A stretch of DNA of 64,000 bases from Tubulanus polymorphus. Its lineage: Eukaryota; Animalia; Nemertea. Made by a program: the position numbers and the translations under genes. The stretch spans positions 13,796,485 to 13,860,484 of the forward strand of contig NC_134027.1 of the NCBI RefSeq assembly GCF_964204645.1, in the 5' to 3' direction. How positions within the stretch are numbered: the stretch's first letter is position 1; each line of letters starts with the position of its first letter. The notes beneath the pieces are model-generated. The model did no database searches. It had not been told where the DNA came from and saw only the letters and a list, made by a program, of their open reading frames with translations. Below are positions 22,200 to 63,957 of this stretch, one piece after another.

Positions 22200-22392
22200 A
22201 GTAATAGGGATAATAGGCTTTCAGATCAAAGGTCGATCGGTCGAGCGAGCTCGTAAAAAAATGAAAATAACAATAATTTACAGTTGAATGAGTCGCGCAC
22301 ACTCCTAATTCAACTGTAAATTATTTTTATTTTCATTTTTTACTCACTCGCCCCTTCAACCTTTAACCTGAAAGCCTATTATCCCTATTACT
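22200..22392. repeat. Terminal imperfect palindrome of the left TIR
   Basis: AGTAATAGGGATAATAGGCTTTCAG ... CTGAAAGCCTATTATCCCTATTACT, with a further internal stem of ~37 bp. Confidence 0.93.
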
Positions 22393-22807
22393 CTTAAAAT
22401 ATTCATATATATAAACATAATTTACATGAATAACATTTAAATTTACAGATTATTCAATATAAAAGTGTAAGCTCTTATAGAATAGATATATAGATAGATA
22501 TATTTTAAACATTATTTCAATATTCATATTTGTATGAGTTAGATTTTTAAACATTAAAAGTGTTAGTAAAGTGTGATTGAAATAATACATGATATAAATC
22601 ATTGAACTTCTAAAATCAATTTAGTAAAAAATATGTATAATAAATGGAATAACAGTTATTATATTATCCGGCGTAATATATAAATCAAAATTCAAATCTG
22701 ATGATAAAGATGATTCCAATGATGATAAACCTATTATACCAGAAAATAAGTCAAATCATAAAGCCATTGAAACTAAATCTAAATTATTATTAATGGATTA
22801 AAATAAG

Positions 22808-23905
22808 ATGAAAAAAGAACAATATTTAAGAGATTTATATTATAACCCAGAAAGTGAAGTATCATATTCTAACGTTTCAGAATTATGGAATAAAATTAAA
22901 TCTGATAATGGTGGTATAAAATATAGCGAATTAAAATCATGGTTACAAAATCAACCAACATATCAAATCCACAAGAAAATGGATAAAACTTATTTAACAA
23001 GAAAAGTTATGGTTTCATATATCGATCAACAATGGCAAGCTGATTTAATTGACATGAAGAACTTAGAAGAATACAACAAAGGATATTTCTGGATACTGAA
23101 TGTTATAGATATATTCAGTAGATACGCATGGTCAATTCCAATCAAAAATAAAACTGGAATAGAAGTTACAAATGCTTTTAAATCTATATTTAAAGAAGCT
23201 ATTCCAGATAAGATACAATTTGATGAAGGTAAGGAATTTTATAACAAACATTTTAAAAAACTATTATCTGATAACGATGTAGAATATTTTTCAACACACT
23301 CAGATAAAAAAGCATCTATTATAGAAAGGTTTAATAAAACATTGAAAACTAGAATGTGGAAATATTTTACTGCTAATGAAACATATAAATATATCGATGA
23401 GTCTATAAATATGTTAGATGATTTAGTGAAAGGTTATAATAATTCTAAACATAGTTCTATAAATATGAAACCTATACAAGCTAGAAAAGAAGATAATTCA
23501 GAAATAGTTTGGAATAATTTATATGGAGCGTTTGTTACACATGATTTCGGTGAACCTAAATTCAAAATTGGACAACACGTAAGAATATCTAAATATAGAA
23601 AAACATTTTATAAAGGTTATACCCCAAATTTTACTGAAGAAATATTCAAGATTAAAAAGATAATATTAACTAAACCATTTGTTTATAAATTAGAAGATAT
23701 AAAAGATGAAGAAATATTAGGTTATTTCTATGAACAAGAATTATCACTTGTACCAAATCCAGATGAAATAGAATACAAAATAGAAAAAGTATTCAAAACA
23801 AAAACTCTTAAAGGAAAAAAGTATTCTTTGGTGAAATATAAAGGATACCATGATAAATTTAATGAATGGATTTTATCTAGTAAAATTAAAAGAATAAATG
23901 AATAA
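22808..23905 (+). CDS. Polinton retroviral-like (rve) integrase with C-terminal chromodomain, intact ORF
   Basis: WQADLIDM, QFDEGKEF and IIERFNKTLK (DDE triad); YKIEKV..LVKYKGY..FNEWI. Confidence 0.93.
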   Translation: MKKEQYLRDLYYNPESEVSYSNVSELWNKIKSDNGGIKYSELKSWLQNQPTYQIHKKMDKTYLTRKVMVSYIDQQWQADLIDMKNLEEYNKGYFWILNVIDIFSRYAWSIPIKNKTGIEVTNAFKSIFKEAIPDKIQFDEGKEFYNKHFKKLLSDNDVEYFSTHSDKKASIIERFNKTLKTRMWKYFTANETYKYIDESINMLDDLVKGYNNSKHSSINMKPIQARKEDNSEIVWNNLYGAFVTHDFGEPKFKIGQHVRISKYRKTFYKGYTPNFTEEIFKIKKIILTKPFVYKLEDIKDEEILGYFYEQELSLVPNPDEIEYKIEKVFKTKTLKGKKYSLVKYKGYHDKFNEWILSSKIKRINE

Positions 23906-24508
23906 AGATTTATTCATATTCGAACCGCATAATATGTTAGTTACTGGAGTAACCAACTGTGGTAAAACACATTTCATATTAGATTTGTTAGAAACTATTT
24001 ATAAGAATCATTTTGATAATATAATATTATTTTGTCCTACTTATGAAATGAATAAAACATATAATAGAGATATAGTTAAGATAAAAAAGTTTATTATATT
24101 AGATCCTAAAACAGTAAAAGAAAATTTAGATAATTGTATTAAAATAGCAACTGATACTTATAAAGGATCAAATACATTATTCATTATAGATGATTGCGCA
24201 AATTTACATTTTTAAAAGTTAGAGAAAGTGAGTTATGCTATTTAGCTTTCTCTGGGAGACATTTTGGGATAACAACATGGGTTTTAAATCAAAAATATAA
24301 TTCAATTGTTAAAGACTTTAGGGAGAATATAAGATTTCTAGTTCTATTTAATAACAAAGATAAAAAATCTATGCAACAATCATTAGAAGAAAATCAAATT
24401 ATACCTACTGAATTACATGATGAATATATGAATAAATTAAAGAATAATAAAGGTTCAAAATTATTACTGAGATTACAATTTCCCTATGAATATAAGTTTA
24501 TAAAATAA
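23898..24508 (+). pseudogene. Polinton packaging ATPase (A32/FtsK-HerA-like), frameshifted near 24210
   Basis: Walker A GVTNCGKT and Walker B IIDD, then SGRHFGI..NQ in another frame. Confidence 0.88.
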
Positions 24509-24888
24509 CTTACTTAAATAATAAATTTATATATCTATCTATCTAATACGTATTAAATACGTATTAGATACGTATTAAATACATTAATACTTAAAACCCC
24601 ATTTTTAAAATAAATATTATTCATATAATTTTCAACCAATTTATTTTTATTTTTTTCAACTAATATATGAATAAGTTTGAAAATAATAAAGGTTATTTAT
24701 TATTACTGAGGTTTCAATATAAATTTAAAAAAGAAATATAATTTAAGGCATTTTCAAATAATATGCATTAAATACGTATTAGATACGTATTAGATACGCA
24801 TTAGATACGTATTATATATGTATTAGATACCTTAATACTTAAAACCCCTTTTTTATTTACTATTATTTTATACAATTTTCAACCTTTA

Positions 24889-25086
24889 TTACTTTCTGAG
24901 TGTTAGATAATTACTTTCTGAATCACTTCCATCATCACTCTCCAATTCATCATCAGACCCCAACAATCTATTCAAATTCTCTACCGAATTTTCTTCTTCA
25001 AATTCTTTATTATTTTTGTACTTATTCTTCACCATTTTTACCGCATCTTCATAAATAATTGGTTTATTGATATACTTATTAGTCAT
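24889..25086 (-). CDS. Polinton hypothetical acidic ORF (possibly a frameshifted tail of the upstream ORF)
   Basis: 65-aa ORF inside the element; no motif recognised. Confidence 0.35.
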   Translation of the reverse strand: MTNKYINKPIIYEDAVKMVKNKYKNNKEFEEENSVENLNRLLGSDDELESDDGSDSESNYLTLRK

Positions 25087-25176
25087 CTCAACTATATCTT
25101 TATTTCTGATTTAAGTTTCATAGAATCTTTATTATCAATGCGCTTTCCTGTATTTTCGTTATCATCTTTCTTAGTG

Positions 25177-25755
25177 TTAGACCTTAATATTGTATTTACA
25201 ATGCTTGATTCTAGTATTTTTTTTTGCAGCAGTTAAATCTAATTCATCATTACTAGGTTCCTTAGATAAAAATTCACCTAATAAATCTTTATATAAATCT
25301 TTACCATCTACTTTTTTATTTGAAACAAACTTTGTAACATAATTAAATGGGTGTTCTATAAATTCTCTTATACCAACACGATCTATTACATTAATAATAT
25401 GTGAATTTGTATTCATATGATTATTCCAATTTGATGGAGCGTTTGAAAATTCACCTTTACAATAATCACAATAATTTCTATTTTCACTAACATTTAATAT
25501 TATTGCATTATTATATGTAGTAGGTATTACATTATTTGATGTAGAGGGTATTACATTATTAGATGTAGAAGGTATTACATTATTAGATGTAGTAGGTATT
25601 ACATTATTAGATGTAGTAGGTATTACATTATTAGATGTAGAAGGTATTACATTATTATCAATTACATTACTTAAATTATCAACAATTTCACTTTTATTAT
25701 TATCGATTTCTATTAGTTTAGTTTTATAAATTTTGAAAATAGGATCAAATATCAA
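25177..25755 (-). CDS. Polinton hypothetical protein with NNVIP(S/T)TS repeats and a C2H2-like zinc finger
   Basis: 24-bp tandem repeats at ~25510-25660; CDYC..HMNTNSH. Confidence 0.55.
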   Translation of the reverse strand: MIFDPIFKIYKTKLIEIDNNKSEIVDNLSNVIDNNVIPSTSNNVIPTTSNNVIPTTSNNVIPSTSNNVIPSTSNNVIPTTYNNAIILNVSENRNYCDYCKGEFSNAPSNWNNHMNTNSHIINVIDRVGIREFIEHPFNYVTKFVSNKKVDGKDLYKDLLGEFLSKEPSNDELDLTAAKKNTRIKHCKYNIKV

Positions 25756-25880
25756 AGCTATATTACAAGGTATTACATAATATAAACCATCATTATTTTC
25801 ATGTGTATCGATGTATGGAATATGTTTATATACTTTACCTCATTCCATTTATATAATAAATATTTATTAAAGTTAAAATT

Positions 25881-26528
25881 TTAATACATAACACTATCTA
25901 ATTGTGAATTTACAATATTTAATTGCGCGTCAGATATAATATAAATGTGCATTTTGAAATTTAGACTTCCTTTTTTCTTTGTCATGAATAATTGTATTCC
26001 ATCTTTAGTGTTCTGTAGTTTTTTTCGAGAACCATGTAATGAATTATCCTCTGTTGTTCTAAAATCTAACCATAATGCATATTTATTACCGGTATAATAA
26101 TCAATTTGATTAACGTTACAATTTTCAGATGATTTCACTTTTTCATTCATAAAATGTTTTCTAATTTCTGGCCATTGATCTATCATTCTCATTCCTTGAC
26201 AAAATATTTTATTTGCTAATCCCTTCGGTAAAATTTTTTCAGTTTGAACTTCTCTTGAATTAGGTCTACTAGTTTTGGAAGTTTTATTCTGTTCAGAACT
26301 TGTTTCTGGTTCTAAATTATTATCGATTATTTCAAATAAGTCATCAATTCTTTGACTAAATACTCTTATATTATCATCTCTTTCTTCTTGTGTAACATTG
26401 GTTATTTCATTACTATTAATTATTCTCTTAATTCTATCTGGTTCTAACTTAAGCAAAGTTGATTCTGCTAATATTTTACTTAGTCTTGTACTTTGATTAG
26501 TGATATTAATATAATAATCATCTTTCAA
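25881..26528 (-). pseudogene. Chimeric ORF: C-terminal ~115 aa of a putative major capsid protein fused to an unrelated N-terminus
   Basis: GLANKIFCQGM..ALWLDFRTTEDNSLHGS..IYIISDAQLNI resembles, from recall, the C-terminus of invertebrate Polinton MCPs. Too short for a double jelly-roll. Confidence 0.55.
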
Positions 26529-26653
26529 TTTATAATATTATTCACCATCTAAATATTTTAAATCTTCTACTAAAAATCTGGCCCCTCTGTCATTTATATT
26601 ATATCCAGATCTTTCAAATACAGGTTGGAATTTATATATAAATTTTTTATTTT

Positions 26654-26890
26654 CTAAATCTCGACTCGATAAACCTTGATTTTCATATTCAGCAGGTATT
26701 CTCGATCTAATTCTTCTATCATTTTTTCTGTTGATGGGACTTTAGAACCACTATCTGCTATATTAGAATTATATGCTGATTCATCATCATTATCAATATT
26801 AGTTTCATTAAAATCAGGTTGTGGTTCATCACTTATACCGGGTTCATCACCAAAAGTATCAAATGGAATATCTTCCCCACCTTCTGCCAT
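26654..26890 (-). pseudogene. Polinton hypothetical protein N-terminus (MAEGGEDIPF), probably once continuous with the 26528 ORF
   Basis: TAAATG start context as in neighbouring genes; acidic N-terminus; breaks downstream. Confidence 0.45.
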
Positions 26891-27102
26891 TTACATAATA
26901 AAAAAATTAAAATTTAAAATATAATATTCCTCCGATTACAATTCCTATACAAGTTATAGCTAATTTAGTATTTTCATGGGATTTATTATCATCATTTGGT
27001 TTAATTATATCATGTTGAATAATATCAGTTTTTATATTTTCTGATGTATTATAATCTTTTATTTTAGAATCATTATTTAATTTAATATTCTTAGTTTTAG
27101 TT

Positions 27103-27789
27103 TCAGTTGATTGAATGTTTTTTATTTTTTTCTCCTTCCATTAATTTTGGAGCAGTAATAATCTTTTTATTTATATCATTCAATCCAAATGAATTATTTA
27201 TTGTTGCAGTTTTAATTAGATTATTATAACCAATTATGTTTCCCATCTTTAATACTAAATCATTAGAAATAATTAATAGATTAGGGCCTATACAATAATT
27301 TAATCTAATATGTGATTTATCTAAATAATTTTGATATCTTACAATGTTTTCTGGAATCGATCTATTTTTATCATTATGAATTGAATCTTCAAATAAAACT
27401 TTAAATTGTTTTTGTGTATCGAATGATGTATTCAAATTTCCAATTATCGGTGATCTTGTTTCAACTTGTGATCCTAGAATACAAATCAAATAAGTTCTAA
27501 TAGATTGATTTATTCTTTCTATACCTGATTTAGTAAAACCTTCACTATTTTCTAAAATAAAATAAACCCAACCATTATTGTTTTCTTGTTTTAAATGATC
27601 ATAAAATTTCGGTAATTTATTGAAATTTAATGTTTCTAAATCCTTAGTTTCTATTTTACCATAACCTAATTTATTGGATGGTATGGGAAATGCACAATAT
27701 TCTGCAATCTTTTTAGGGCAAGGAAGTGATCTTATTGTCCCAATTTTTGTTCTAAAATCAGAATCAATATTATCAACTTTATCTTCCAT
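27103..27789 (-). CDS. Polinton hypothetical protein
   Basis: 228-aa ORF, TAAATG start, co-oriented within the gene array. Confidence 0.6.
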   Translation of the reverse strand: MEDKVDNIDSDFRTKIGTIRSLPCPKKIAEYCAFPIPSNKLGYGKIETKDLETLNFNKLPKFYDHLKQENNNGWVYFILENSEGFTKSGIERINQSIRTYLICILGSQVETRSPIIGNLNTSFDTQKQFKVLFEDSIHNDKNRSIPENIVRYQNYLDKSHIRLNYCIGPNLLIISNDLVLKMGNIIGYNNLIKTATINNSFGLNDINKKIITAPKLMEGEKNKKHSIN

Positions 27790-27805
27790 TTATTTAGCAA
27801 AAAAA

Positions 27806-28231
27806 TTAATAATTAGTAAATTTATATGCTACAAATATAACAATAACTGTTCCCCCTAAAATCCAAATTATTTCATATTTCTTCTGTTCATTACTTGGGG
27901 TATAATAATCGGATAATTTAGGTTTGTATAGATGTAATTTTTCTTTATTGGTTACCGCGTTATATAAACTCATTGCATCATCAACTGATTGAAAATCTCT
28001 ATGTGAAATCTTCTGATCATATAATTCTTTATTGATGTAATCCATATAGTTTTGTCGTTTTTCTCTATATTCTTCTGCTGCTTTATTATATTTCTCTAAT
28101 GCTGAGTTATGTCTTTTTTGTTCTGTTAATGAACCTTTTTTATCAATATGCTTGAATAAATAACCACCACCAGTAAATGCTAAAGCGTTAACAATTGCCG
28201 ATCCTATAATAGTTATAACTGCAGAAGCCAT
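27806..28231 (-). CDS. Polinton hypothetical membrane protein
   Basis: 141 aa with hydrophobic N- and C-termini (IVNALAFTGGGYLF; IIWILGGTVIVIFVAY). Confidence 0.65.
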   Translation of the reverse strand: MASAVITIIGSAIVNALAFTGGGYLFKHIDKKGSLTEQKRHNSALEKYNKAAEEYREKRQNYMDYINKELYDQKISHRDFQSVDDAMSLYNAVTNKEKLHLYKPKLSDYYTPSNEQKKYEIIWILGGTVIVIFVAYKFTNY

Positions 28232-28256
28232 TTATTTAGTAAAATAATTATGTATT

Positions 28257-29552
28257 TATATGGGAGGAATATATTTTTGTTTTTCTAAATAATCAATAGT
28301 TAAATTAGATAAAGTAACTGCTAATGTTAATTTTAAAATATCATTTTAAAAACTCTTCAGTTGGCGTCACCACGTCTCACGTGACAGCTTTAACAAAGAG
28401 ACTAGGTCGTGGTCACGCCTCAAGTGACGGTTCCTTTTACCCCCGATAGATGGCAAAGTAGTCAAGCCTGGCTGCTGACACTGAGTCAGTATGCTCTATA
28501 GAGAGCCAGTATGCTCTATAGAGAGCTCACAAGCGATTGTATATACTCTACACACACAGGCAGTATGTACTGGTTGTCGTCGGCAACCAGGAATGTGAGT
28601 GTTGTATCAGCGGTTTTGGACCATATTCCTTGTTTCGACATATACCATACCCAGCTCAATTATCGCTTAGAACATATCAATCTTTTAACTAAACAAACTT
28701 GCAAAATGCAATCTTATCACTAAATAAACTCTCAAATTAATGCTTTAATAAATTTGAACGATTTCTTTGAATTTCATTTGAATAAGATTTCTTTGAATTT
28801 CATTTGAATAAGTTTCATTTTTAGGAGCCTAATTATCTGAAAACCCTGGGTCATCTGGGGGGTCAAGATGACCCCCAGATGACTCCCTGGCACGTTTTAT
28901 ATCAAGGAAATGAGATATCTAGAGGATTCAGAGGATCAACATTGAGGAAACCCAAAGAAACCAAACAACTGAGAAGTGATTACGAAATCAGCGAAAATTG
29001 AGCGATTTTCACTTTTTTGAGACCCTGAGGATTTTTTGAAATTTTTGACCCCCCAAAGAATAAAATGACTGCCCTGGATGGTTTTCTTGTTGTCCTATGA
29101 TATTATGAAAGAAAATAGCTATTTACTATTTTATTTGTATAAGATTCTGGCTTCTAAAGTGCAATACAAAGACGTTTTTGGTTGCGTGACCTCAACTTGA
29201 CCTCAGGTTTTGGGGGTCCTACCTTGCACCCTGTAGGTCCAAACTTTTTATAACTAACATTTTCTGGTAGAGATACCTATTAGCTTCATAACAGATATTG
29301 GTTTTAGGAGGGTCTCTACACTGGAAATGTATCTAACTTTACATAGAAATCATAAGACAATAAAGGCCAAAATTAATTCCCCACATTGAATGGATAATGA
29401 AGAAATATATCCCCAGCGGAAGAATCAAATCTATCAACATTAACACTTGCCATTTTGAATACTTTTTTTAATACCATTGAATAACCAACAGTTCCAACTG
29501 ATAGTAAGGCGCCATTATATAATCCAGTTATTATCCACTTATTATCACTCAT
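28257..29552 (-). pseudogene. Small hydrophobic Polinton ORF split by a ~1.07-kb insertion
   Basis: MSDNKWIITGLYNGALLSVGTVGYSMVLKKVFKMASVNVDRFD (from 29552) appears to continue as NDILKLTLAVTLSNLTIDYLEKQKYIPPI* (from ~28346). Confidence 0.6.
28347..29423. mobile_element. Unclassified non-coding insertion in the Polinton
   Basis: Higher GC than its flanks; interrupts an ORF; imperfect subterminal IR TCTTCAGTTGG / CCAGCGGAAGA; no clear TSD. Confidence 0.5.
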
Positions 29553-29909
29553 TTATTTATCAAAAAAATTACTATCATCAAAATATTTAGTTAACTTATT
29601 TATGATTAATTCAACATTTATTTCATTACTAGTTTCATTTGTATATATTTCAATTATAATTTTTTTAATATCATCAATAATAAAATCTTCATCTAATTCA
29701 TAAAATCTTAAAGATTCTCTAATTAAATTAGTAATCTTTTCTACATTTAAAGTTTCTTTATTTATTGTTGTTTCATACTCAAATGTTGTTTCATTAGAAA
29801 ATGCAATATTTTTAATATGTGTAATTACATCATTAACGTTAAATTTCATTTCTTTCTCACGTCTAAAATCAAACCCAAAACATATACTCGGCCCAACAGT
29901 TATATTCAT
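29553..29909 (-). CDS. Polinton hypothetical protein
   Basis: 118-aa ORF, TAAATG start, in the tightly packed array. Confidence 0.55.
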   Translation of the reverse strand: MNITVGPSICFGFDFRREKEMKFNVNDVITHIKNIAFSNETTFEYETTINKETLNVEKITNLIRESLRFYELDEDFIIDDIKKIIIEIYTNETSNEINVELIINKLTKYFDDSNFFDK

Positions 29910-29925
29910 TTATATAATGAAAAAA

Positions 29926-30684
29926 TTACTCTCTACATCTTATAACTAATTCATAAATTACAGGAAAGTTATTCAAATCAATTAAATATCCATTATGATT
30001 TCTTATTTCTAATTTAAAATTATTGAATTGAGGAATACAAGGTTTAAAATCACATTCAGTTAAATTATAATTTATTTGAGTTCCAAATTGTTTAACATTT
30101 TTTAGCGGTAAAATATTTAGTATACTAGAATTACAAATTGTATCTTTAGTTGTTTCGAATGTTTTTGTAGGATCAATTAAATTGCAATAAATATAAAAGT
30201 GTGTAAAAGGTATTATATTTGAATTACCATCTACGTTTCCTGTAACAGTATGTGGTACAATTCTTAACAGTTTAGCTATAGGGTTTTTTACCATAAATGC
30301 ATGTTGACTTTCATCATATACCTTTATTTTAATTTTATTTGTGCTATCACTTTTTATAAATCTAATTAAAAATTTATCATCTTTTCTAATTTTCAACCGT
30401 GCTCTTCGATTAATTTCTTGAGCTAATGTTTCTAAATTATATAATCCTGGTTTTAAAATTAGATGAAACCATTTATTTACATTTCTAATATGAATCATAA
30501 AAGCATTATCTTCAATAGTTTTATCCGTTATATTATAAAAAGAATTACATAAACTTATATTTACTAATTTTAAATCTACACAATTTTTATATTCCCTATC
30601 TAATTGAACTAGTAAATTATGAGATTTATAATTTGTAAGTTTTCTAGAATCAACAAATATTCTGTATTCTTTTAATTCCGCCAT
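29926..30684 (-). CDS. Polinton minor capsid (penton) protein
   Basis: 252 aa; IFVDSR, PGLYN..L..EIN, YIYCNLI and a C-terminal LEIRNHNGYLIDLNNFPVIYELVIR, typical of single jelly-roll pentons. Confidence 0.72.
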   Translation of the reverse strand: MAELKEYRIFVDSRKLTNYKSHNLLVQLDREYKNCVDLKLVNISLCNSFYNITDKTIEDNAFMIHIRNVNKWFHLILKPGLYNLETLAQEINRRARLKIRKDDKFLIRFIKSDSTNKIKIKVYDESQHAFMVKNPIAKLLRIVPHTVTGNVDGNSNIIPFTHFYIYCNLIDPTKTFETTKDTICNSSILNILPLKNVKQFGTQINYNLTECDFKPCIPQFNNFKLEIRNHNGYLIDLNNFPVIYELVIRCRE

Positions 30685-30701
30685 TTATTTTACATATTTT
30701 C

Positions 30702-31055
30702 TTATTCGAAATCTATTTCATTGTGCCCTTTTTCATTCTTACCTTTGTATACGAAATAGAAATCTCCAGAACATAATTCTTCTAAATCTTCACTTGATAA
30801 TCTATGAAATCTATCCGGTAAATATGTTCTGAGTTTATGTGTATTTCCTTTTAATCCTTCATATTCTAAGTGTATAACTAATTTATCTCCATATTTGTTA
30901 GTAACTGTATCAATATTTGTAATTAGATATTTCTTATGGATTATCAATTCTGTTAACTTTTTGAATTTATAATCTACAGATTTTACATTTGTAGTATCTT
31001 TTATTCTATCTAGAAATAATTTGTTGTTCTCACTGTGTGTTTGTTTACTCTCCAT
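30702..31055 (-). CDS. Polinton hypothetical protein, possible OB-fold/ssDNA-binding
   Basis: 117-aa ORF directly after pPolB; TNKYGDKLVIHL..YLPDRF. Function is inferred only. Confidence 0.5.
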   Translation of the reverse strand: MESKQTHSENNKLFLDRIKDTTNVKSVDYKFKKLTELIIHKKYLITNIDTVTNKYGDKLVIHLEYEGLKGNTHKLRTYLPDRFHRLSSEDLEELCSGDFYFVYKGKNEKGHNEIDFE

Positions 31056-31084
31056 TTATAATACATATTTTTATTAAAATTTGA

Positions 31085-34000
31085 TTAACACGTTAAAATT
31101 CTTTTCATTATCTCATTCTCTTTTGTTTCTTCTCTTTTAAATTTTAAGTATTCATCTAAATTACAACCATAAGCAACTGTATGAATTCCATCATCTAAAA
31201 TATATCTTTCATCATCAAATGGGTTTAGACTTATCTTTTCAATTTCTTCAATACACATTTCATGATCTTCAGATCTTAAACATCTCATCTTATGTTTTCT
31301 AACTTCATTGAATATACAATTGATGTAATCTTTGAAATGAATATTCTTTTCTACTACACTTTTGGTTATTCCTTTTAACTTTTTAGCTTCATGTTCTTTA
31401 GTTTTATATGAATACATTTTAGATCTAATACCTATGAATTCAATCATTTCTTCACCACCTAATTCATCTTTGAATTTACCGGGAACTTTTTTATTATCAT
31501 TGCTAAACAATTCATGATCTTTAGGATAGTTACTAAAATCAGAATGATGTTTTAATGTTTTTAAATCATCTGTTATGTTATCAGTTTTTATCTTTAATAT
31601 GTAACTGTCGGTATCAAAATATAGTATTTCTATATGTTTTTCTCCAAAAAGTGGTTGTAATACATTATAATAGAATTCATACATTAGTAATTTTGATAAT
31701 TCTAAAACTGAAGCGCCAACATAGATTGGTTTATTAAATTTCATTGATGTTCTTCTCATCTTAACTGCAGCTAAATTTTCATCAAATATTCTGTTACCTA
31801 AAAACTTAGGATATGACTGTAAATGTCTAATAATTCTTTTACCATTACTGACTAACTCAATATCATTTCTATTTCTAATATTTTCACAAGTCTTACCATA
31901 GAATGCATTGTTCATTAGTTTGAAGAAATCATTTTCGAAATCAGTTTTAGCTTCAGTTCTCTGTTTGGTGTTAAAATCTATATATTTTTTCTAACCACTT
32001 AGATTGACTAAATGAAATATATCTATGTACTTTTTTTAGAACCATTCCTTGATTCAAATAAAACTTTAACATTCTATAATGAACTACATAATTATATTTA
32101 TCTTCTTGAGTTACCATTAACTTTTCTGTATGAATATGATTTTCAGGTTTAATTCTTTTTTGATAACTTGATAATTCTTCATGAGTTACAGTTTTATGTT
32201 CGGGGCAGTATGCTAGATTTCTAGATTTAAATTTAATATGTTTAGGATATTCTAAATCTACAACAAAGAAGTAACCAGTATCTGAATCATCTGCAATATC
32301 TAGAATTCTTTTCTTCCAATCAAATTTATCATTATTTTCATTCTGTAAAACTTCACTTATTTCGAATACTCCATAAGGTTGTGGTTCCAACATTGCCCAA
32401 CCATACAAGTTATTTGCATCTATATATAATAACTTATATCCAGGATTATCATTTACATTGAAATATCTATCACCTAATACACCTGAAACTCCTCCTCTTA
32501 TAGATTTTTCAAATAATAGTAATTGATCTATATTTGTTAACAAATCCATTTTTATATCTGTAAATTTTAATCCACAATCCCATGTTAAACCTGGTGATGA
32601 ATAACAATGACATGGATCAATATTGAAATATTTTAGGTTTACATCTCTAAACCTTTCGAATATATCCGATAATATTAATACATCTGATTTTAAATATAAA
32701 TCTACTAATTGCCCATGATTTTCTATTTTGAAATGATTCCAAATATTCAATGTTCTATTATATACTTCATCTTTAACATATTCATTTTTTAATTCATCAT
32801 AGAATTGTTCTTTCAATAATTCAGTTATATTGAAATCATTATGATTTTTATAGAAAGAATATGGAATTGCTCCTTTATATCTCATTAATTTAAAATCATC
32901 ATTATTTGGGTAGTGTTGTTTTAATATTTTTAATTCTCAGGTGTTTTAGCTAACATTCTAAATTTATAAGTTGGTATTTTATCTTTTGATCTATTTGAAT
33001 TTAATCTTTCTATTTCATTATTAATTTCTTCTATTTTATGACATAACTGTTTGATAAATAAATGTGCATCATATCCTGATAGATTATGAAATATAACTGG
33101 TACAAAATTAATTTTCTTAGCTTGTAAGTTACAATTCTCATGTGCAGCGCCTCTAAACTTTCCATTCAAATGATCATGGTCTCTTACTTTTTTATCTTTA
33201 TAATTAAATATCTTTTCACAATAATAACATTTATCTGCAAACGCAAATGCTTCTTTATCTTCTTCTGTCATTATAATTTCTATATTTGTATTCAATAATT
33301 TACTAAATCTTATTTCATATTCAATTAATAAGTCACAAAAATGATTGATAACATTTTCATTTCTGTAATGATAATATTCACTTTCAATTAGTTCTGGATA
33401 ATCAGATTTTATATATAACCCGAAAGCTGCAGCTGATTGATGAATCTTTTTAATAGTATTTGTTTTTGGTGGTTCTTCAGAATAATCATTTTCATTAGAA
33501 TTTAATTTCTTTCTTTTATAATATATTTCTTTTCTATCTTGATCAGTTAATTCTTTATTTAATGATTCAAAATCTCCATATATTACAAATGGTACTTTAT
33601 TTTTGTAATCATATTTTTTGAATTCTAATATTTTATCCTTTTCATTTGGTAAAACTAATTTACAATAATCATGATTTTCACATAATTGTTTATGATTTAA
33701 TAATGTACTTTCATTACTGAATTTATGTAAACATTTTCTACATAGATATATTTTATTATGGTGATCACTTTCTGTTCTAAAGAATAAATCTATTTGTTTA
33801 ATCCACATATAATGATTCTCATAATATAATATATCTATAACATCGTTTGAATCATAATCTTTTGATAGGTATAAAGGTTCTAATGTATAATGTTTTATAT
33901 TATTACCTTTTGTATTTGGTAATTTGATAAAAATAAAATACATTTATCTTTATATTATTATCTCTTTCTATCTTTGGGATGTTTTTAATTATAACAGGAT

Positions 34001-35021
34001 ACTTATCTATCTTATAATTATTTTCAAATGGTTTATAATGAGTTAACCTACAAATATTATGAGTTGCAGGATGTAAACAACTTATTATAGCCCATAGAAA
34101 ACATTTATCATCAAAATTGTGTACATTTATTACAGCATTAGTTTTAAATGGTAGTTTAATATAACTCGATGCTTCAATATCTGGTTCTTTATAATATGAC
34201 ACATTATTTTCATCTATTGGTTTTGATTTAGTTAACTTATTATATTTTGTGTTATAAACATGTAAAGTCATAAATATTATTTCATCAAATATTAAACCAG
34301 ATCCTTCAAAATATTTCTCTTCTATTTTAGTTTTTACTTCATTATAACATTTATCTAATTTATCATCTATATGTTGTTTAGATATAATATGTTGTGAATG
34401 AGAATTTATATTATATATTGGTTTATCTTCAGATTTTATAAACTTTACTTTAACTGATATACTAATTTTAGGATATTCAACATCAGTTATTATTTTTATT
34501 ATTTCTTTCATATTTTCTAAATGTTTTTTATTTTCTTCTAATGTTTTTCCTTTATGAAATTTAAACTCGATAGCTGCTGGACCAATATAACTTTTAAATG
34601 CTTCGGTTATCTCTATATCTTTTTAATTATCCAATGAATTAATATATTTTCTTACATCTTCCATGTATGGTCTTTTATTGTTTAATTTATTTTTTATGCT
34701 TTTAATTGTCTTCTGTTTCTTATCATTATCTTTATCAAAATAATCTTCACCTAAAATATCATTATTCTTATTTCTAATATGACTTTTAGATTTTAAACGT
34801 TCATTATAATATATTTTATCACTGAATGATTGATTACATGTATCACATTTGTATGTTTCTTTTTCATTCTTTAATTCATCTAATTTAGTTTCTAATATAT
34901 CATCGTTATATTCTAATTTTAATTTATTCTCTAAATGTGTTTTAGTTTTATTGTGTCTTGCTTTTTGGGATTTATCTATATTGATATTACATGTTGGGCA
35001 GTAGTACTTATTTGCTTCCAT
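31085..35021 (-). pseudogene. Protein-primed family B DNA polymerase (pPolB), broken into five ORFs
   Basis: N-terminal C2H2 fingers; KCFLWAI (OTU-like); YGDFES; CYYC..DHDHLNGKFRGAAHENCN (EndoVII-like); HNLSGYDAH; DANNLYGWAM; KLMNNAFYGK; YFDTDS. Confidence 0.93.
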
Positions 35022-35271
35022 TTTAATATCAAATTTTTTATTAAAATTGATTTTAGAAGTTCAATGATTTATATCATGTATTATTTCAATCACACTTTAC
35101 TAACACTTTTAATGTTTAAAAATCTAACTCATACAAATATGAATATTGAAATAATGTTGTAAATATATCTATATATCTATTCTATAAAAGCTCACACTTT
35201 TATATTGAATAATCTGTAAATTTAAATGTTATTCATGTAAATTATGTTTATATATATATGAATATTTTAAG

Positions 35272-35460
35272 AGTAATAGGGATAATAGGCTTTCAGGTTA
35301 AAGGTTGAAGGGGCGAGTGAGTAAAAAATGAAAATAACAATAATTCACAGTTGAATTAGGAGTGTGCGCGACTAATTCAACTGTAAATTATTGTTATTTT
35401 CATTTTTTTACGAGCTCGACCGTTCGACCTTTGATCTGAAAGCCTATTATCCCTATTACT
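35272..35460. repeat. Terminal imperfect palindrome of the right TIR
   Basis: Reverse complement of 22200-22392, 4 bp shorter. Confidence 0.93.
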
Positions 35461-37660: not shown

Positions 37661-38170
37661 TAAAACTATTATTATTGTTAAGCATTTCCATGTAGTAAGA
37701 GATATGAAATATTATGAACCGTTCCTTATGAAATTAGTATGAATGTAAATATAAATATGATTATGAAATATGTGACTTATATCAGGGTGACCAAGACAAG
37801 TGGAAAAAACACAAGTTAGCTTGATTCTCGTATTCAAATTTAATTCAACTTTATTTTATTCATCATATTTACAAAGCATATCATTGGTTCATGCAGTAAT
37901 AAAAATTAGGACAGAACAAATACTATTATAGAATTTTCAAAAAGGTAATGAATTTCTATAACTAAATGAACATTATATTTCTAATAACGAAGATCAAGAG
38001 TGACTCTTCCGTTTATTAGGAAACACTTTGACGTTTACACAGTGGATGCATATTAGGTTCGAATCTGTCAATGCATTTTATTCTATGTATCGGTATTTCA
38101 ATTTACTACAATTCCCATCATCCTGAATGGCTTTGCAGAAAACCCGACATCGCTGCTTTGCAGCTATATT
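37661..38170 (+). mobile_element. 3' part of another HINE (tail 38135-38170) that cuts the second Polinton
   Basis: GCAGAAAACCCGACATCGCTGCTTTGCAGCTATATT; matching head not identified in the window. Confidence 0.6.
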
Positions 38171-38227
38171 TAATATTTTGTACATATAATTGTATTTTAA
38201 TAATATTGGGGTGTCAGCTATTACAGA
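38171..38227 (-). other. Putative intein N-terminal splicing block (block A) inserted at pPolB motif C
   Basis: ILYFD is followed by SVIADTPILLKYNYMYKIL instead of TDSYIL; truncated by the HINE tail. Confidence 0.7.
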
Positions 38228-38661
38228 ATCAAAATATAATATTTCGATATGTTTTTCCCCAAAAAGTGCTTGTAAAACATTATAATAAAAATCATACATT
38301 CATAATTTTGACACTTCTAAAACAGTTGAACCTATAAATATTGGTTTATCAAATTTAATTGTCATTCTTTTTAATTTTACTGCTGTTAAATAATCTTCAA
38401 ATCGTTTATTTCCTAAATGTCTAGGACTTTAATTTAAAAAAGTCTTTTTCAAAATCTGTATTTGATATGGTTCTCTGTTGAGTGTTGAAATCTATATTTT
38501 TCTAACCATTTCGATTGGTTAAATTCAATATATCTATGAACTTTTTTTAATTTCATTCCTGGTTGTAAATAAAAATTTACCAGTATATAAAGAGCAATAT
38601 AATTATATTCATTATTTTTTGTTAATATTAATTTTTCTTTAAAAACATGATCTTTCGGTTT
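38171..38661 (-). pseudogene. Second Polinton pPolB remnant, downstream piece (up to motif C)
   Basis: KPKDHVFKEKL, KKVHRYIEFNQSKWLEK, IGSTVLEVSKL and MYDFYYNVLQALFGEKHIEILYFD align with the first Polinton's pPolB. Confidence 0.88.
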
Positions 38662-39887
38662 TATTAGGGTTTTCTGTTACATCACAGAAAACCCTATTGA
38701 GATTCGCGTGTTTCTTATTATTATTAGGGTTTTCTGTTACATCACAGAAAACCCTATTGAGATTCGCGTGTTTCTTATTATTATTATTATTATTATTATT
38801 TTTTCCACACATTTTTTGTCAAAAGTACATAGGCTTTTTTACATTACCGCTGTTGCCGATACAATCCGTCTGATATCATTCAGCTCAGTTCGATCTACAA
38901 ATACTCCGTGCGAATTTTGAAGAATCAACGTTACAAAAGCACTGTCGGGCCGTAAACTTCGAAAATTGAGCCCCATTCAAAGAGCCGACATGTTTTTCTA
39001 AGTCGTCTTTCCGAAATCTACCGCACGTTTCTTGTCACATCGATTATCAATTCAAGCATAAATTAACAAATTTATTACCGAAAGATTGCACATTCTGTCG
39101 CGGTTTTTAAAAACTAATTTTAACAGTAACCCATTTTCCTCATCAAATTATATTACTGATAAACAGGAAATTTACTACTTTACATTTTAAAAGCACTGTC
39201 GAGCCGTAAACATCGACAAATCGACGTGTGTCACTACATCGTCGTTCCGGGAATCAGCTGCGAGTTTCTTCTCATTCTGAGAATCAAATCGAGTACAAAT
39301 TAATTTATTACTACCAGTGATTTGGCTGCGGGCGTCAAATAGTTAATTTAGCGATACCTATTTTTCTTTACCAAATTTACCGTGTCTTTACTAAGATAAA
39401 TCATAAGTATACCGGGGAGTCGTAGGCCTAAACGAAACACGCCGAAGTGATATAGCGGAGAAAAGATGTTATGTCGACGAGGTATCAAAATTAAAGAATA
39501 TATTACTTTATTCGGCCGCGGCCCTCATTATCAATACCATCAATACTCTATATTTCCTACAGTACATACCGATCATTGTCAAATGCACAAGGTATTTACT
39601 AAATACAAGTATATAACCGGTTCCTGAACTTCGCTGAAAAAGCTGAATCACTGAAACGCTGAAATAAAAACGCTGAAATTTCAGGGAATTTCCGAAAAAC
39701 GCCGAAATTTCAGGGAATTCCCGAAAAACGCTGAAATCGTGCTAGGTACCAACAATACACGTTTTGAAATATTTTCCGGGCCGGTGTCCGCTGCCGAGTC
39801 CTGAACCGTGTTTTAGTCTCTACCTTCGGTTACAGAGACACGCATGGACAGTATGTGTGGAGTATACTTCTAGAGGGCCACTTGTTG

Positions 39888-43695: not shown

Positions 43696-45398
43696 ATGCC
43701 TCGCTATTGTTGTGTACCCCTTTGTAAGTCAAGAGTAGGCGGATTTAAGTTCCCTACGAACACAGATTTGAAAATGAAATGGCTTGTTGCGATAAAACGA
43801 CTACAGAGTAGCGAGAAATCTGCAAAATTATGGCAGCCATCGGATACAGCTATCGTATGCCATCGACATTTTTTACCAACGGACTATAAACAGACACTTA
43901 CCGGTAAATATGGCTTTCCTATTGAGTTTTCCAACTAAGGTGAAATAAGCGGTCAAGATCCAAGGCAGGCTGATTCGTTTAGGCCTCAGCTTGGGCCTAT
44001 CGATATTATGCAATGTCGATGTTTTGAACTTTTTTTAAAAAGCCAGGCGCTTATTTTCATATCATCATAGTAGTTTGTTGATAACAGGATAATGATATAA
44101 CTCAATTATGATAATAACAACAATAGGCCTAATAATTTATGTGGTAGATTTATCTTTTTAATTTAAAGGTTGTTGACTTGACTGGCAGCTGTTGATCTTT
44201 GAGTAGAAATATGTTTTTTTCTTTATGTGTTTCAGGTTCTAGAAGAAAATTAAAAGAGAATGCCATTCCGCGTATATTTGCCTTCACACCACCAGTTTCC
44301 TCAGATTCAGAGAGAGAAAGTAGAGCCAGTCGGCGAAGATTAAAACTGGAGGAAGAACCTGTACACCATGACATAGCCACTGAAGTTGAAATAGGCCTAC
44401 AACATACCAGCAATTACAGAATGGACATAATAGAGGAACCAACCAATAAAAACACTAACTTGGATAAGAATATTCAGTGTTCCCTCCTTTCAGATCAATT
44501 TTTCTGTATCGAGAGATTTATGGTGGATCCTAGGTCGATCAAATATTACACCAGTTTTAAAGACTATGAACATTTGATGATGTTTTTCAGTGTACTAGGA
44601 CCTGCTGCGTACGATTTGAATTACAAATGTCAGAAACTAACACCGGTCAATCAATTTTTCTTGACATTAATCAAATTAAGGCGTGCCAAGGAAGATATAG
44701 AACTGAGTATTCTGTTCGGCATATCAGAGAGTGTAGTTTCTAGGATTGTGTTAACCTGGGTAAACTTCATGTATTTCCAATTAAGTGAAATCAATACATG
44801 GCCAGAGAGAGAAGAGATAGACTGTTTCATGCCCAGTGGCTTTAAGCATCATTTTCCGTCAACCAGAGTTATTTTAGATGCTACAGAGATTCCAATTGAA
44901 AAGCCGTCGAATGTAAAATCTCAAACTGCAACTTTCAGCACATACAAACATAAGAACACGCTTAAAACTATGGTTGGAATATCACCGAGAGGGGTCGTTA
45001 GTTATGTAAGTGAAAGTTATGCGGGTTCAACAAGTGACCGACAAATCATTGAACGATCCCAGCTGTGTTCAAACACCTCAAAATACTTCAGCTCGAATGA
45101 CAGCATCATGGCCGATAGAGGTATAATGGTACAAGATCTTTTTGCTACCAAGAACATTAAGGTGAACACCCCAACTTTATTGAAGGGCAAGAGTCAACTT
45201 GAACCTGAACAAGTAGTTCATGATCGTAGAGTAGCCAGTAAACGCATCCAAGTAGAAAGAGTAATCGGATTGTCAAAAACTTTTCTTATTTTGAAAAAAG
45301 ACCTGCCGCTTAGTAAAGTCAATATGGGTTCTAGGATAGTTTATGTTTGTTTCAGTATAAGCAATTTCAGACCAGCTATTGTGAACGAATTTGCTTAA
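43696..45398 (+). CDS. THAP-HTH-DDE transposase, 456 aa, exons 43696-43903 and 44236-45398, intact
   Basis: THAP motif CCVPLC..FP..W..CHRHF..AIP completed across a GT-AG intron; ILDATEIPIEKP, GSTSD, MADRG, RIQVERVIG. Confidence 0.9.
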
Positions 45399-46119
45399 CC
45401 TTATTGTTAATGTCTGTTAATTGATATCTAAAGTATATATTTTTGAGTTTTGTTTTGAGATTCATCGAAACCCCTGCTTTAAAGAAACATCATTGTTTCT
45501 CTTAATAGATTATTTAGGTAAATCCCAAATTCTTAGATATCAATTATGGGCCTGGACTGTAATTAATTGTCTGTCGTTGATATTCAAAATCTGTGCGCAA
45601 TATAACCTATTTCACTTTGACTTAATCCACTCTTTTGCAGTGTTTTCAATTCAAAGGACAAACTAATTTTCATTCCAGTAACAAACCCTTTTATTGATTT
45701 AAAACTGGTAAAAACCAAAAATACAACAACGCTACATAAAATCTTTTTAAAATGCATGATAACACAGATATTTTATGTAAAATGGAAGAGTTTGAGTTTT
45801 GGGACTAAAGCATTCATGCCATAGTCAGGCGCAGCACATAATGAAATAATAAATAATCATGGTAATGAAATATGGTCAGAAAAGGAGTAAATCATTAATT
45901 TTCAAACTTTTGACCCACCATCGTCAGTAATTATGCATATAACTACACAACCTGACAAGTATATCTGTTTGAAATAACTATATATGATAAAAAATATTGA
46001 TAATAGATGATAAAAAATATTAAAACTTAAAAGTATCAACAAATAGTAAGCCGATATTGACATGAAATCTATATCATACAATTGGGATGTACATGTATTT
46101 ACAAATTTAGTTGTATGAA

Positions 46120-51066: not shown

Positions 51067-51384
51067 GAAATTTTGGCGTTTTTCGGAAATTCCCTGAAAT
51101 TTCAGCGTTTTTATTTCAGCGTTTCAGCTTTTCAGTGTTTCAGCTTTTTCAGCGAAGTTCAGGAACCGGTATATAACACACTCCTATCCGTATGCTGACT
51201 CACACTTGACATTCGGAGTAAGCGTTCGCTGTGGGGGAAAGGAGATCGTTCGCTGTGTAGCTTGTGTTTATCGAGTTTTAGGCGACCTTAAAGCTTTAGT
51301 ATGGTGGCTGATAAGATAAATAACACGAATATGCAAATAAGGGCGACATTACGACAAAACTAAAATAACGCGAGAAAACAATGA

Positions 51385-53711: not shown

Positions 53712-54852
53712 TTCAGTCCACTTGGGACTTTAGTCCCAGCGGGCTATTGTGTTCACTTTTCGTCCGTCCGTCCGTCCATAGACGGAATCCAATTATTTTG
53801 GGAAGTTTTGAAGACGCTTCAAGGTAATGTCTTGATATTTGCTTTATACATGTATCTAGCCTAGACACATCGTCAGCTCAAAAACTGGCCCTGTCAGATT
53901 CAAGATGGCCGACTGGCAGCCATTGTTGTTTGCCAAAATCAGCACTTTTTAAACATTTTCGAAGGTTTCATGGGGATATTTTGAAGACGCTTTGATCAAT
54001 TACCTTGATCTTTCGTTTATATTTGAATCTACCAAAGGCCCATCAGCATAAGAAAATTGGGTCGATCTGACTCAAGATGGCCGTCCTATGATCTTTTTAG
54101 TGCCCAAAAATGTCAATTTTGGCCAGAATTCTAGGTCCTGTAGCTTCCTACTGGTTTGCCATTTCTCATTGCAACTGCTGATGGGTATTCTTTAGAGAGG
54201 GATGTTTTATACCTGGGACTGGTATTTTTGATCAGCCAATTATGACGCAATTGGCGGCCATTTTGGTGTCATCAGTACTCATTCGTAGGTGGGAAAAAGT
54301 TTTTCCACATTAAATTGATACCTGATATTGTGTTACTATATTCAATTGGAAAGTTGTAGCCCATAACGTGTTCTATGATTTTGGTGAGTTTCAAGGTCAT
54401 TGGTTTTAGTATGTGGCCATCAGGGGGCGTTGAATAATACAATAACTTAGTATTGCTATATTATATTTGTACCAAGGCATATTTTGTTACCATGATCAAT
54501 TGCAAAGTTGTATTTCATGACATCGTCTATGATTGTGGTGAGTTTTTAAGGACATTAGTTATTCCATATAGTCACCAGGGGGCGTTGAATAGTAGAAAAG
54601 CTTAGTTTTTCCTTATTAGATTGGTACCTAGGCATAGTTTGTTACCATGATCCATTGCAAAGTTGTAGATCATGACATCGTCTATGATTGTGGTGAGTTT
54701 TTAAGGACATTAGTTATTCCATATAGTCACCAGGGGGCGTTGAATAGTAGAATGGCTTAGTATTTCCTTATTAGATTGGTACCTAGGCATATTTTGTTAC
54801 TATGATCAATTGCAAAGTTGTATTTCATGACATGTACTACGATTGTGGTGAG

Positions 54853-55105
54853 ATAAATGAAGAAATCCCACACTTCGAATTTGAAATTATACTATCAAAT
54901 TTATTATTACGAAACCACAACGTTTCGGCTGTCGACTAACAGCCATCATCATCATCATTCCACCTGATGATGGCTGTTAGTCAACAGCCGAAACGTTGTG
55001 GTTTCGTAATAATAAATTTGATAGTATAATTTCAAATTCGAAGTGTGGGATTTCTTCATTTATCTACAGTTTACACGGATTATAGTGTTTATTCGACAAC
55101 TAACT
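54853..55105. mobile_element. Penelope-like element remnant (inverted pseudo-LTR ends)
   Basis: ~100-bp near-perfect inverted arms (54851-54951 and 54965-55065); hammerhead motif; 12-bp duplication GATTGTGGTGAG (54841-54852 and 55106-55117). Confidence 0.8.
54960..55001 (+). ncRNA. Minimal type I hammerhead ribozyme
   Basis: CCAC-CUGAUGA-U-GGCUGUU(AGUC)AACAGCC-GAAACGUU-GUGG: stem I, conserved core, stem II and palindromic AACGUU in place of stem III. Confidence 0.82.
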
Positions 55106-61141: not shown

Positions 61142-62930
61142 TATTTTCTGATATTCACTTAAATAACTATTATCTACGGTTATATGTTCTGGGCAATATG
61201 GTAAATTTCTAGATTTAAATTTTATTCCATCGGGATATTCTAAATCAACTACAAAGAAATAACCAATTGGAGCATCATCTTTAAAACCCATAATTGCACT
61301 TTCCCAATCGGTTTTATCATCATCTCTTACTTCTGATAATATAAAATTGTTGAACGGTTGATATTGCATCATTGCCCAACCATGCCCAACCATAAATCAT
61401 TTGCGTCAATATATAATATTTATATTCATCATTTGCTTTAAAATGTTTATCTCCCATAACTCCACTTATTCCAACTCTAATTGATTTTTCAAACAATAAA
61501 ACCATATCTGGTTCTTTTCATAAATCTAATTATACATTTGTATATTTCAAACCACATTGCCAGGTTAAACCAGGACTTGAATAACAGTAACAAGGATCAA
61601 CATTAAAATTATTTAAATTAACTTCTCTAAATCTTTCAAATATATCAGCCAATATCATAACATCTGATTTTAAGTATAAATCTACTAATTCACCATGATT
61701 TTTTATCTTGAAATTATTCCAAATATTTAATGTTTTGTTAAAAACTCCATCTTTCACGGACTAATTTTTTAATCGATCGTAAAATTGTTCTTTTAATAAT
61801 TCTGTTACATTAAAATCATCATGTGTTTTATGAAATGAATAAGGAATTGCACCTTCATATCTCAATAATTCAAAATCTTGTTCATTTGGATAATAATGTC
61901 GCGTTATTATCGAATCATTATCAACTAAACTTTTTGTTAAATCATCTAATGAACTTGCTAAAAATCTATAAGAATCTAAAAATCTCAAACAACCAAATTG
62001 AAATGAAATGTAATTTTCAGATGTTTTAGCTAATAGTTTGAAATAATATTTTCTTACATTTGCGTCATTTATAGCATTATATTCTTCTATTTCTTGATTA
62101 ATTACGCCTAATTTTCCTGATAATAGTTTAATAAATAGGTGAGAATATCCTGATAAATCCTGAAATAATATTGGTACGAAATTAACTTTTTTAGCCTGTA
62201 AATTACAATCTTCATGAACAGATCTACGATATTTTGAATTTAAATGATCATGATCTTTAACTTTTTTATCAAATGAATAAAAACGCTTTTCACAATAACA
62301 ATGAGTTGCATAATCGAAATCGATTTTATCTTCTTTTGTCATAACTATTCTTTTATTTTTGTTTAATAATTGTGCAAAATCATTTTCTAATTCTATAATT
62401 TTATTACAAAATTCATTTACTACATCTTCACCTATAAAAGAAATATATTGACTCTCATATAATTCGATTTTATATAAATTCCGTATGCAGCAGCTCTTTG
62501 ATGAACTTTTTTAATTGTATTTATAATTGGTGGATCTTGAATTGTATCTTCATTTAGTTCATTTCCTTTATCAATAGATTTTAAAAATTGCTTTTTAATG
62601 TATATTTCTTTTCTATCTTGATGAGTTAATTCTTTATTTAATGATTGAAAATCCCCATAAATTACAAATGGAACTATATTTGTAATGGAACTATATTTTC
62701 AAATTTATAATTAGTAAATTTCAATTTATAATCTTTTTCTGTTGGCATTATCAATTTACAAAATCTGTATTATCGCATAATTCTTTTAATAATCTCTGTC
62801 ATAAATTTAGATAAAGATTTTCTACACAAATAAATTATTATGGTGGTCACTTTCTGTTCTAAAAAATAATTCTATTTGTTTTTACCACATAATATGTTCA
62901 TTTTCATCTTTTTTTGTAATATAATAAATG
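61142..62930 (-). pseudogene. Second Polinton pPolB remnant, upstream piece
   Basis: KDHDHLNSKYR..HEDCN, RFLDSYRF, DLYLKSDV, YSSPGLTW and YFFVVDLEYP, co-linear with ~32160-33830 of the first Polinton; many frameshifts. Confidence 0.9.
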
Positions 62931-63957
62931 AAAGGCTGAATCCAAGAACATGTCTATCGCACTGTTGAGCCCAAACGTCTACTTTTACTTAGTAGCCACT
63001 TGAGAACAATAAGCAATTAACGATATCGGCTACTTTTCCAGTAGTATACATTTCAAAACAGTCACTCTGAAATAGTATTCCTTTCAATTCGGTTGGTTTT
63101 CTATAGTGGCTGTTTCGAAGAGTCTACTATTGAAAAGTGACCATTTGAAAACATCTGGTTTTGATAGTGCACTAGAGGTGACTGTAAAACCACCCGCCTG
63201 TAAACAGTGACTTTGTGATAGTAACTCATACCATAACGGCTACTCTCAAAACATATCGTTTCTAAAAGTCAACTATTGAAAAGTGACAATTTTGAGATCG
63301 CTTGCCAGATTCCCTGTTATAAATACACTGTAGCAACATATGCTTCAGATTTGCAGTGTTACGTGACAATATAAACATACTGAGAAACTCTACTCACCTA
63401 CAGTTTGGAGTATAATTCCATTTAGAGTGACTCATTTAAGATCTGAAGATATTGTAGATACTCTTTGAGGATGTGAAATGTAATGAGCGATTCCCAACTC
63501 TAACCAATAAAAGTCGAGATTGGAGTTAAATTTATTTACAAATTGTCAATAGTTATGTAATTTTAAGATAAATCGAAATTTCCTTCTTTTTCATGGCGAT
63601 ATAATTTAATGAAGAATTTAATTTGAACAAATGCAGCTATTTTCAAGCATAGGTCTGTATTTATTTTCGATTTAAATTCTTTAATTATAAGCGCAATCAT
63701 TAATTCAGGCTAACCTCTCAGTATTGAAATGGTGGTTTATTTTCAACGGGGGCCTGGATGTCTTAGCATCTTAAATTACGATCTGTTCGAATTTCCCTGA
63801 ATTCTAATTTCGCTGCATCATTGATTTTCTTAAACAAAATATGCTATATATATCCATGTGGATTTTAAACATTCTAAAAAAATCAACTAAAACAAGCCCA
63901 TATTTGATCAAATTTAATATCAATAAGAAACTTTGTATGGTATTCAAGATTTCATTT

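Follow-up and report, generated by a model that had tools for sequence, protein, structure and literature searches.

The best described counterpart of the element reported here is the intein in the DNA polymerase B (PolB) of Mimivirus (Ogata et al. 2005, PMC549080): in the available text of that study it occupies the pol-c site YGD|TDS, to be compared with Y/F-x-D|TDS in the Polinton inteins, and both share an initial serine (Ser1), a TxxH motif, a LAGLIDADG domain, a terminal asparagine, a threonine as first C-extein residue (Thr+1) and a length of about 350 amino acids. The hosts differ: that of the Mimivirus intein is a PolB of the RNA/DNA-primed kind (PF00136 type) from an amoeba-infecting giant virus, whereas the Polinton inteins reside in a protein-primed PolB (pPolB, PF03175 type) of an integrating multicopy element, likely in an animal nucleus. 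PolB inteins on giant-virus contigs (IMG/VR GVMAG contigs) are 40-45% identical to the Polinton inteins, use the same site and in some cases share their C-terminal GFPLIVKN-type end, but the Polinton-hosted inteins form a branch of their own.

Inteins have also reached the eukaryotic nucleus inside endogenous viral polymerase genes: the accessible part of Gallot-Lavallee et al. 2023 (PMC10710043) describes them in algae and in a labyrinthulid, within viral PolB genes that have integrated there. These cases are however giant-virus-like insertions in non-animals, and the strings 'metazoa', 'animal' and 'transpos' do not occur in the available text of the article. Nucleases inside the pPolB of Polintons are known as HNH/VSR insertions (Jeong et al. 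2023, PMC10748475; Krupovic et al. 2024, PMC11071308), but, as far as the available texts go, these domains are fused, at other positions and without a described splicing domain; in the available text of the latter paper, the pPolB nuclease insertions are suggested to stem from intein invasions. The word 'intein' has no occurrence in the available main texts of Jeong et al. 2023, Barreat and Katzourakis 2021 and Starrett et al. 2021, and the available portions of four further articles (PMC12220804, PMC5718144, PMC3671162, PMC13768754) mention inteins only in general terms. Green et al. 2018 (PMC5784728) state, in the text available, that inteins are absent from metazoan genomes, which is their rationale for intein inhibitors, and the viral inteins in their list are those of giant-virus families and of unclassified viruses only; the view of the initial annotation of this locus that canonical inteins are essentially unknown from animal nuclear genes agrees with this. 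The iridovirus inteins counted in the available text of the same article (PMC5784728) are also in viruses of animals, but these are non-integrating relatives of giant viruses. The HINT domains of animals (Hedgehog and intein-like) have neither a homing endonuclease nor a rejoined host protein, unlike the Polinton inteins, whose full-length relatives combine a LAGLIDADG domain with the two exteins of a single polymerase. No earlier report of an intein in a Polinton pPolB was found in the main texts of the openly available literature, in line with the initial annotation, which was aware of none.

Here we describe what we consider, with good confidence, to be a canonical Ser-type intein that is truncated after its first codons and interrupts motif C of a Polinton pPolB, in what is likely an animal genome; the complete members of its family are predicted to splice and likely home into intein-free Polintons.

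An intein stub in a broken Polinton polymerase gene

The window (the whole stretch of DNA that was analysed, 64,000 nucleotides) contains two copies of a Polinton pPolB gene. Copy 1 is part of an element with both ends:

22200..35460, no strand: Polinton copy 1 with both ends, terminal inverted repeats of about 450 bp (94.7% identical) and a 6-bp target duplication (TGTATC)
31085..35060, minus strand: copy-1 pPolB in several frames, with an Endonuclease VII domain and an intein-free motif C (site between 31613 and 31612)
22802..23905, plus strand: copy-1 rve integrase with chromodomain
23898..24508, plus strand: copy-1 A32-like packaging ATPase, in two frames
29926..30684, minus strand: copy-1 probable minor capsid protein (look-alikes 0.97-0.98)

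The terminal inverted repeats, the target duplication, the pPolB, the rve integrase and the packaging ATPase are hallmarks of Polintons/Mavericks. The look-alikes of the minor capsid protein are all viral clusters, one of which carries the name Sputnik minor capsid, with PF21507 present in 26% of its members; a candidate piece of a major capsid protein (25881-26537) had no informative match in Pfam or in the Atlas, and no cysteine protease was recognised in copy 1. The Endonuclease VII domain of the copy-1 polymerase is separate from the intein. The element is 13.3 kb long and inserted in the 5' part of a LINE (18838-22220), and its terminal repeat at 35272-35460 is internally palindromic (85% self-inverted).

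Copy 2 survives only as pieces of pPolB and is assigned to the Polintons by similarity to copy 1 and to P0006, its closer empty relative (69-80% in four of the five pieces that align, 47% in the most decayed piece):

38189..38227, minus strand: the 13 codons of the relic that are securely intein (N-terminus with Ser1 and block A), on the evidence of profile score, relatives and contigs
38172..38188, minus strand: five to six extra codons up to the repeat end, uncertain, either decayed intein or filler
38228..38665, minus strand: part of the copy-2 pPolB N-extein, reaching as far as the first motif-C Asp; a pseudogene with stops and frame changes
61145..62932, minus strand: upstream piece of the same broken pPolB gene
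38131..38171, plus strand: terminus of a HINE-like repeat, truncating the intein; the window has eight copies of this end
38661..39617, no strand: repeat abutting the other end of copy 2, with 87-97% identical copies near 2271-3102, 8722-9671 and 56057-56894

The two gene pieces, 22.5 kb apart, adjoin: in terms of the copy-1 ORF, the upstream piece runs to residue 260 and copy 2, the downstream piece of the broken gene, restarts at residue 262. The 22.5-kb block of nested repeats that splits this polymerase gene (38666-61142) is bounded by repeat ends on both sides. A repeated end and T-rich flanks are what is observed at 38131-38171; the label HINE is that of the initial annotation and is assumed here. 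HINEs are non-autonomous Helentrons, characterised by inverted repeats in subterminal position, a palindrome at the 3' end, a T-rich target and the lack of a target duplication. Elsewhere in the window, a DDE_Tnp_4 transposase faces a SWIM-finger gene that is in short pieces, which may be exons (44196-47464); the element is presumably of a kind resembling the Harbinger/ISL2EU type. Tandem arrays with a period of about 31 bp and strong AT skew are found at about 1056-2074, 5000-8230, 51370-53900 and 57100-60900; they are long, occur in both orientations and lie inside larger repeats.

As the initial annotation stated, the minus-strand frame 38299-38171 reads through the last part of a Polinton polymerase N-extein into SVIADTPILLKYN and then a few more codons, and the copy-1 ORF (31085-31990) runs on as TDSYIL where copy 2 switches to the intein. 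The DNA similarity of the two copies stops exactly at the Asp codon (38228 in copy 2, 31613 in copy 1): the switch into the intein comes after the first Asp of motif C in copy 2, and the proposed insertion at the pol-c site, between the first Asp and the Thr of PolB motif C, is correct. The two copies had been called nearly identical, but they are only 75-79% identical in DNA and 60-66% in protein, and for this reason copy 1 is not an 'empty allele' but an empty homologue of another subfamily.

The start with Ser and block A was scored with a position matrix of the 13 N-terminal residues of 157 inteins from outside the Polintons: the stub reaches 33.2 bits (true inteins 21-43), the runner-up among all 59,892 13-mers without stops in the six reading frames of the window reaches 2.2 bits, and the match probability under background composition is 1.7e-11. 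The stub is identical to the relative P0001 at ten of its 13 residues and to P0003, P0011 and P0024 at nine. About 19 codons had been read as visible intein; 13 of these (38189-38227) are secure, but the next five match relatives at only one or two of the five positions. The stub has Ser1 with block A in frame with the N-extein, as is expected of a class 1 intein, and ends before block B, with everything past block A missing. A tblastn search of the window with the P0003 intein did not recover the remainder of the copy-2 intein (best E 0.81), which had been suspected to lie beyond the repeat, and the window contains no copy-2 C-extein. The intein of copy 2 itself is a dead relic that neither splices nor homes. 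The 42-residue junction peptide of the window alone matched no Pfam family, the Rfam search returned no match, and the intein junction pattern had no match in prokaryotic genomes.

Other copies of the junction are present in DNA of the same organism, in three DNA-contig runs (X1, X2 and X3) that come from one study and at most two samples and are possibly the source of the window. Four of the 17 contig pieces listed (there are 51 more) bridge the junction with at least 31 letters on each side; they differ from the window at 8-18 letters and are therefore other copies. Also among the pieces listed, three contigs depart from the window exactly at 38228, as expected of empty copies, and three depart at 38189, which is why the secure intein is limited to 13 codons. 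Summed depths on the intein side and just across the junction, which are not copy numbers, are about 7,500 versus 55,000-58,000 in X1, 38 versus about 810 in X2 and 0 versus 7 in X3. The runs suggest that intein-bearing copies are a repeated minority.

Complete inteins in related polymerases

A search with the 42-residue junction peptide identified P0001 (two matches from four candidates), which has the same junction and continues for about 70 residues into the intein (TIGR01445 E 0.0085, below the cut-off). P0001 in turn led to P0003, a Polinton-type polymerase of 1693 amino acids with an insert of 354 amino acids that starts with Ser and ends with N|TDS (PF14890 E 4.5e-7, PF14528 E 5.8e-7). 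The P0003 intein returned 3,189 proteins, with at least five Polinton-type polymerases among the 120 listed (P0003, P0011, P0024, P0028 and P0029), and a second search returned 2,121 proteins, with P0158 and P0212 among the 150 listed. P0158 contains the C-terminal half of an intein, N|TDA and the return to a C-extein that is 84.5% identical to P0006; P0212 is an intein fragment without exteins. The uninterrupted copies that the initial annotation had proposed to look for are thus found in relatives, as five full-length inteins.

These five inteins are 337-354 amino acids long and all inserted at the D|TDS site. Ser1, VDVTEDH (the TxxH motif of block B), the first LAGLIDADG motif and the Asn|Thr junction (N|TDS) are present in all five; the second LAGLIDADG motif was recognised by pattern in four and by inspection in P0024. 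The block B motif and the LAGLIDADG domain had been anticipated from the stub, and HMM and motif checks find both in the full-length relatives; of the anticipated H/K-N before TDS, the asparagine is universal and a penultimate His is present in only three of the five. The two LAGLIDADG motifs of the relatives have acidic catalytic residues, with matches to PF14528 or PF05204. P0011 clears the gathering thresholds of PF14890, PF05204 and PF14528, and P0003, P0024, P0028 and P0029 fall short of the one for PF14890. A model of the P0003 intein, built from a 38-row alignment (pLDDT 90.6), has the TliVMA intein as its best match in the PDB (E 4.7e-18, TM 0.66) and also matches the PhoVMA, PI-PfuI and PI-SceI inteins; a HINT fold is therefore predicted for this relative. 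Full-length copies with neither a HINT domain nor a return to TDS had been named as evidence against an intein; the full-length relatives have both features. Just before the Endonuclease VII motif of the polymerase, P0003 has a low-complexity repeated insert (residues ~540-640).

Among viral contigs, P0001 gave 15 pattern matches and no confirmed relative, and a PDB sequence search with P0001 returned one irrelevant match; the intein alignment profile was dominated by polymerase exteins. A pattern of the C-terminal motif found 20 viral and 58 metagenome stretches. A single one of the 115 loci fetched has a Polinton-type polymerase, namely the metagenome contig L103, where both intein junctions are present in two ORFs; none of the 115 loci matched the integrase, ATPase or capsid candidates of copy 1. 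Five ORFs of the window were absent from the protein collection. Related inteins are also present at non-PolB sites (P0023, with type II topoisomerase Pfam domains, P0215, with at least two inteins, P0276 and P0280), and six PolB inteins on viral contigs (L038, L042, L046, L048, L052 and L053) have the same type of end and a length of only 221-277 amino acids, suggesting that they have lost parts of the endonuclease.

Probable origin of the intein lineage and possible traces of homing

When a FastTree phylogeny was calculated from 173 inteins of 320-400 amino acids, setting aside five near-identical cluster members, 35 of 213 inteins outside this length range and loci L058-L115, the six Polinton-hosted rows formed one group with a support of 100. 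An IQ-TREE analysis (LG+G4) with 33 of the 167 other rows and three partial inteins recovered the same clade (100/100), now including P0001, P0158 and P0212. The Polinton clade is placed among the inteins that PF00136-type PolBs have at the same site, many of them on giant-virus contigs; this pol-c grouping comes from a tree built without named archaeal and Mimivirus inteins. The clade enclosing the Polinton inteins has a support of 82/92, in a tree whose outgroup is not one side of a branch. The fold matches in BFVD are polymerases of a phycodnavirus, Pandoravirus, Marseillevirus and Megavirus. A giant-virus PolB is the likely donor of the Polinton intein lineage, and only likely because the root of the tree is weak.

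P0024 has a strong match to PF03175 (E 9e-32), and we assign its polymerase to the other class, the Alpha class of Starrett et al. Alignment of its exteins with those of the others is marginal (E 1.7e-4 or worse), while its intein is 44-46% identical to the inteins of P0003 and P0011, which points, somewhat more weakly, to transfer of the intein between the two main Polinton polymerase classes. A nested placement of the P0024 intein is only tentative, as the AU test does not reject a tree in which it stands apart from the remaining Polinton inteins (p 0.247). Within the Endonuclease-VII-type polymerases, inteins are 42-47% and exteins 36-50% identical.

The P0011 cluster comprises 136 sequences. 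Its 15 listed members are on contigs of 57 kb to 1 Mb: seven have intact inteins, six have none, and in two the site is not covered. The seven inteins are 95-99.7% identical to each other and the N-exteins of full and empty copies are 95-99% identical. The differences between full and empty copies are unevenly distributed: 8-11 of the 40 residues beside the site differ, whereas in the rest of the protein the figure is 0.7-2% in five of the empty copies and about 5% in P0139. The divergent tract extends from residue -7 to about +44 around the site, and the full copies have no differences among themselves in the 31 residues before it; the comparison was made on proteins only, with p-values that treat positions as independent. 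Such local divergence is what gene conversion from a diverged donor leaves, but may also be the trace of a single inherited event or of ordinary recombination. Motif C of the empty copies also varies (P0132, P0134-P0136, P0138 and P0139): four have D-TDA and two D-CDS. These non-standard motifs could reflect escape from the endonuclease and would then be candidate resistant sites.

Proposed mechanism, alternative explanations and significance

Excision by means of Ser1, a TxxH motif, Thr+1 and a terminal Asn is the established chemistry of class 1 inteins. In the Polinton inteins, an acyl shift at Ser1, helped by TxxH, would be followed by transfer to Thr+1, and cyclisation of the Asn would rebuild the D-T-D motif, in the way set out for the Mimivirus intein in the available text of its description (PMC549080). 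The unspliced polymerase precursor would be inactive because the insert separates the two motif-C aspartates. Other Polintons of the same nucleus or virus population would have their empty motif-C DNA cut by the LAGLIDADG endonuclease; with an intein-bearing copy as the template of repair, the empty copies would be converted, along with some of the flanking codons.

The first question is whether the stub is an intein at all. A chance or chimeric join of a polymerase fragment to unrelated DNA might be suspected, as there are only 13 informative codons in a decayed copy flanked by repeats, and the initial annotation had itself considered an unrelated repeat joined by a deletion. We regard this as extremely improbable: the background probability of the match is minute, the switch is exactly at a known site, and the presence of the same junction in the independent protein P0001 and in diverged contigs refutes such a join. 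Granted that the intein is real and splices, it may have ceased to home, with one old entry followed by inheritance, patchy loss and ordinary recombination. The similar identities of inteins and exteins among the Endonuclease-VII-type polymerases look like co-divergence and would fit such a history, as would the apparent minority of intein-bearing copies in the runs; we nevertheless consider it very unlikely, given that both LAGLIDADG motifs are kept across inteins that are less than 50% identical, that the P0024 intein resembles the others far better than its exteins do, and that the divergence in the P0011 cluster is concentrated at the site.

The host is most probably an animal, judging from the surrounding repeats and from the multicopy family in the runs of the organism. 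The surroundings of the intein consist of HINE-like repeats, a LINE with endonuclease and reverse transcriptase and the DDE_Tnp_4 transposase with its SWIM partner, a mix that we take to be typical of invertebrates. They speak against a non-animal host (a fungus, an oomycete or another protist) or a contaminating scaffold, in which case the intein would be real and would have a new viral host but provide no metazoan record. HINEs have been described from mites, flies and oyster, as far as the available texts of PMC4067079 and PMC7492417 go. A non-animal origin draws some plausibility from the look-alikes that both PolB classes have in non-animal eukaryotes, according to the accessible part of Starrett et al. 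(PMC8502044), and is in our view very unlikely.

A spliceable, probably homing intein of Polintons in what is likely an animal genome remains our preferred reading. The intein itself is of a known kind and occupies a known site; what is new is the class of host and, probably, the kingdom-level niche. An intact multicopy family of Polinton inteins would overturn the metazoan absence of inteins for nuclear DNA, although not for host genes; it would also add the protein-primed polymerases to the intein hosts and show gene traffic between giant viruses and Polintons. As the polymerase needs splicing, the spliced product would be a direct read-out of Polinton polymerase being made. In a genome with many full and empty copies, the homing cycle of invasion, co-conversion, resistant sites and decay would become measurable within one assembly. 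We see an even chance that Polintons are a working vector of inteins in animals, with one lineage from giant-virus PolB that has crossed both polymerase classes, is still homing among invertebrate copies and drives the evolution of resistant motif C variants. If this is true, an active cycle of intein homing takes place in animal germlines, within the confines of one genome.
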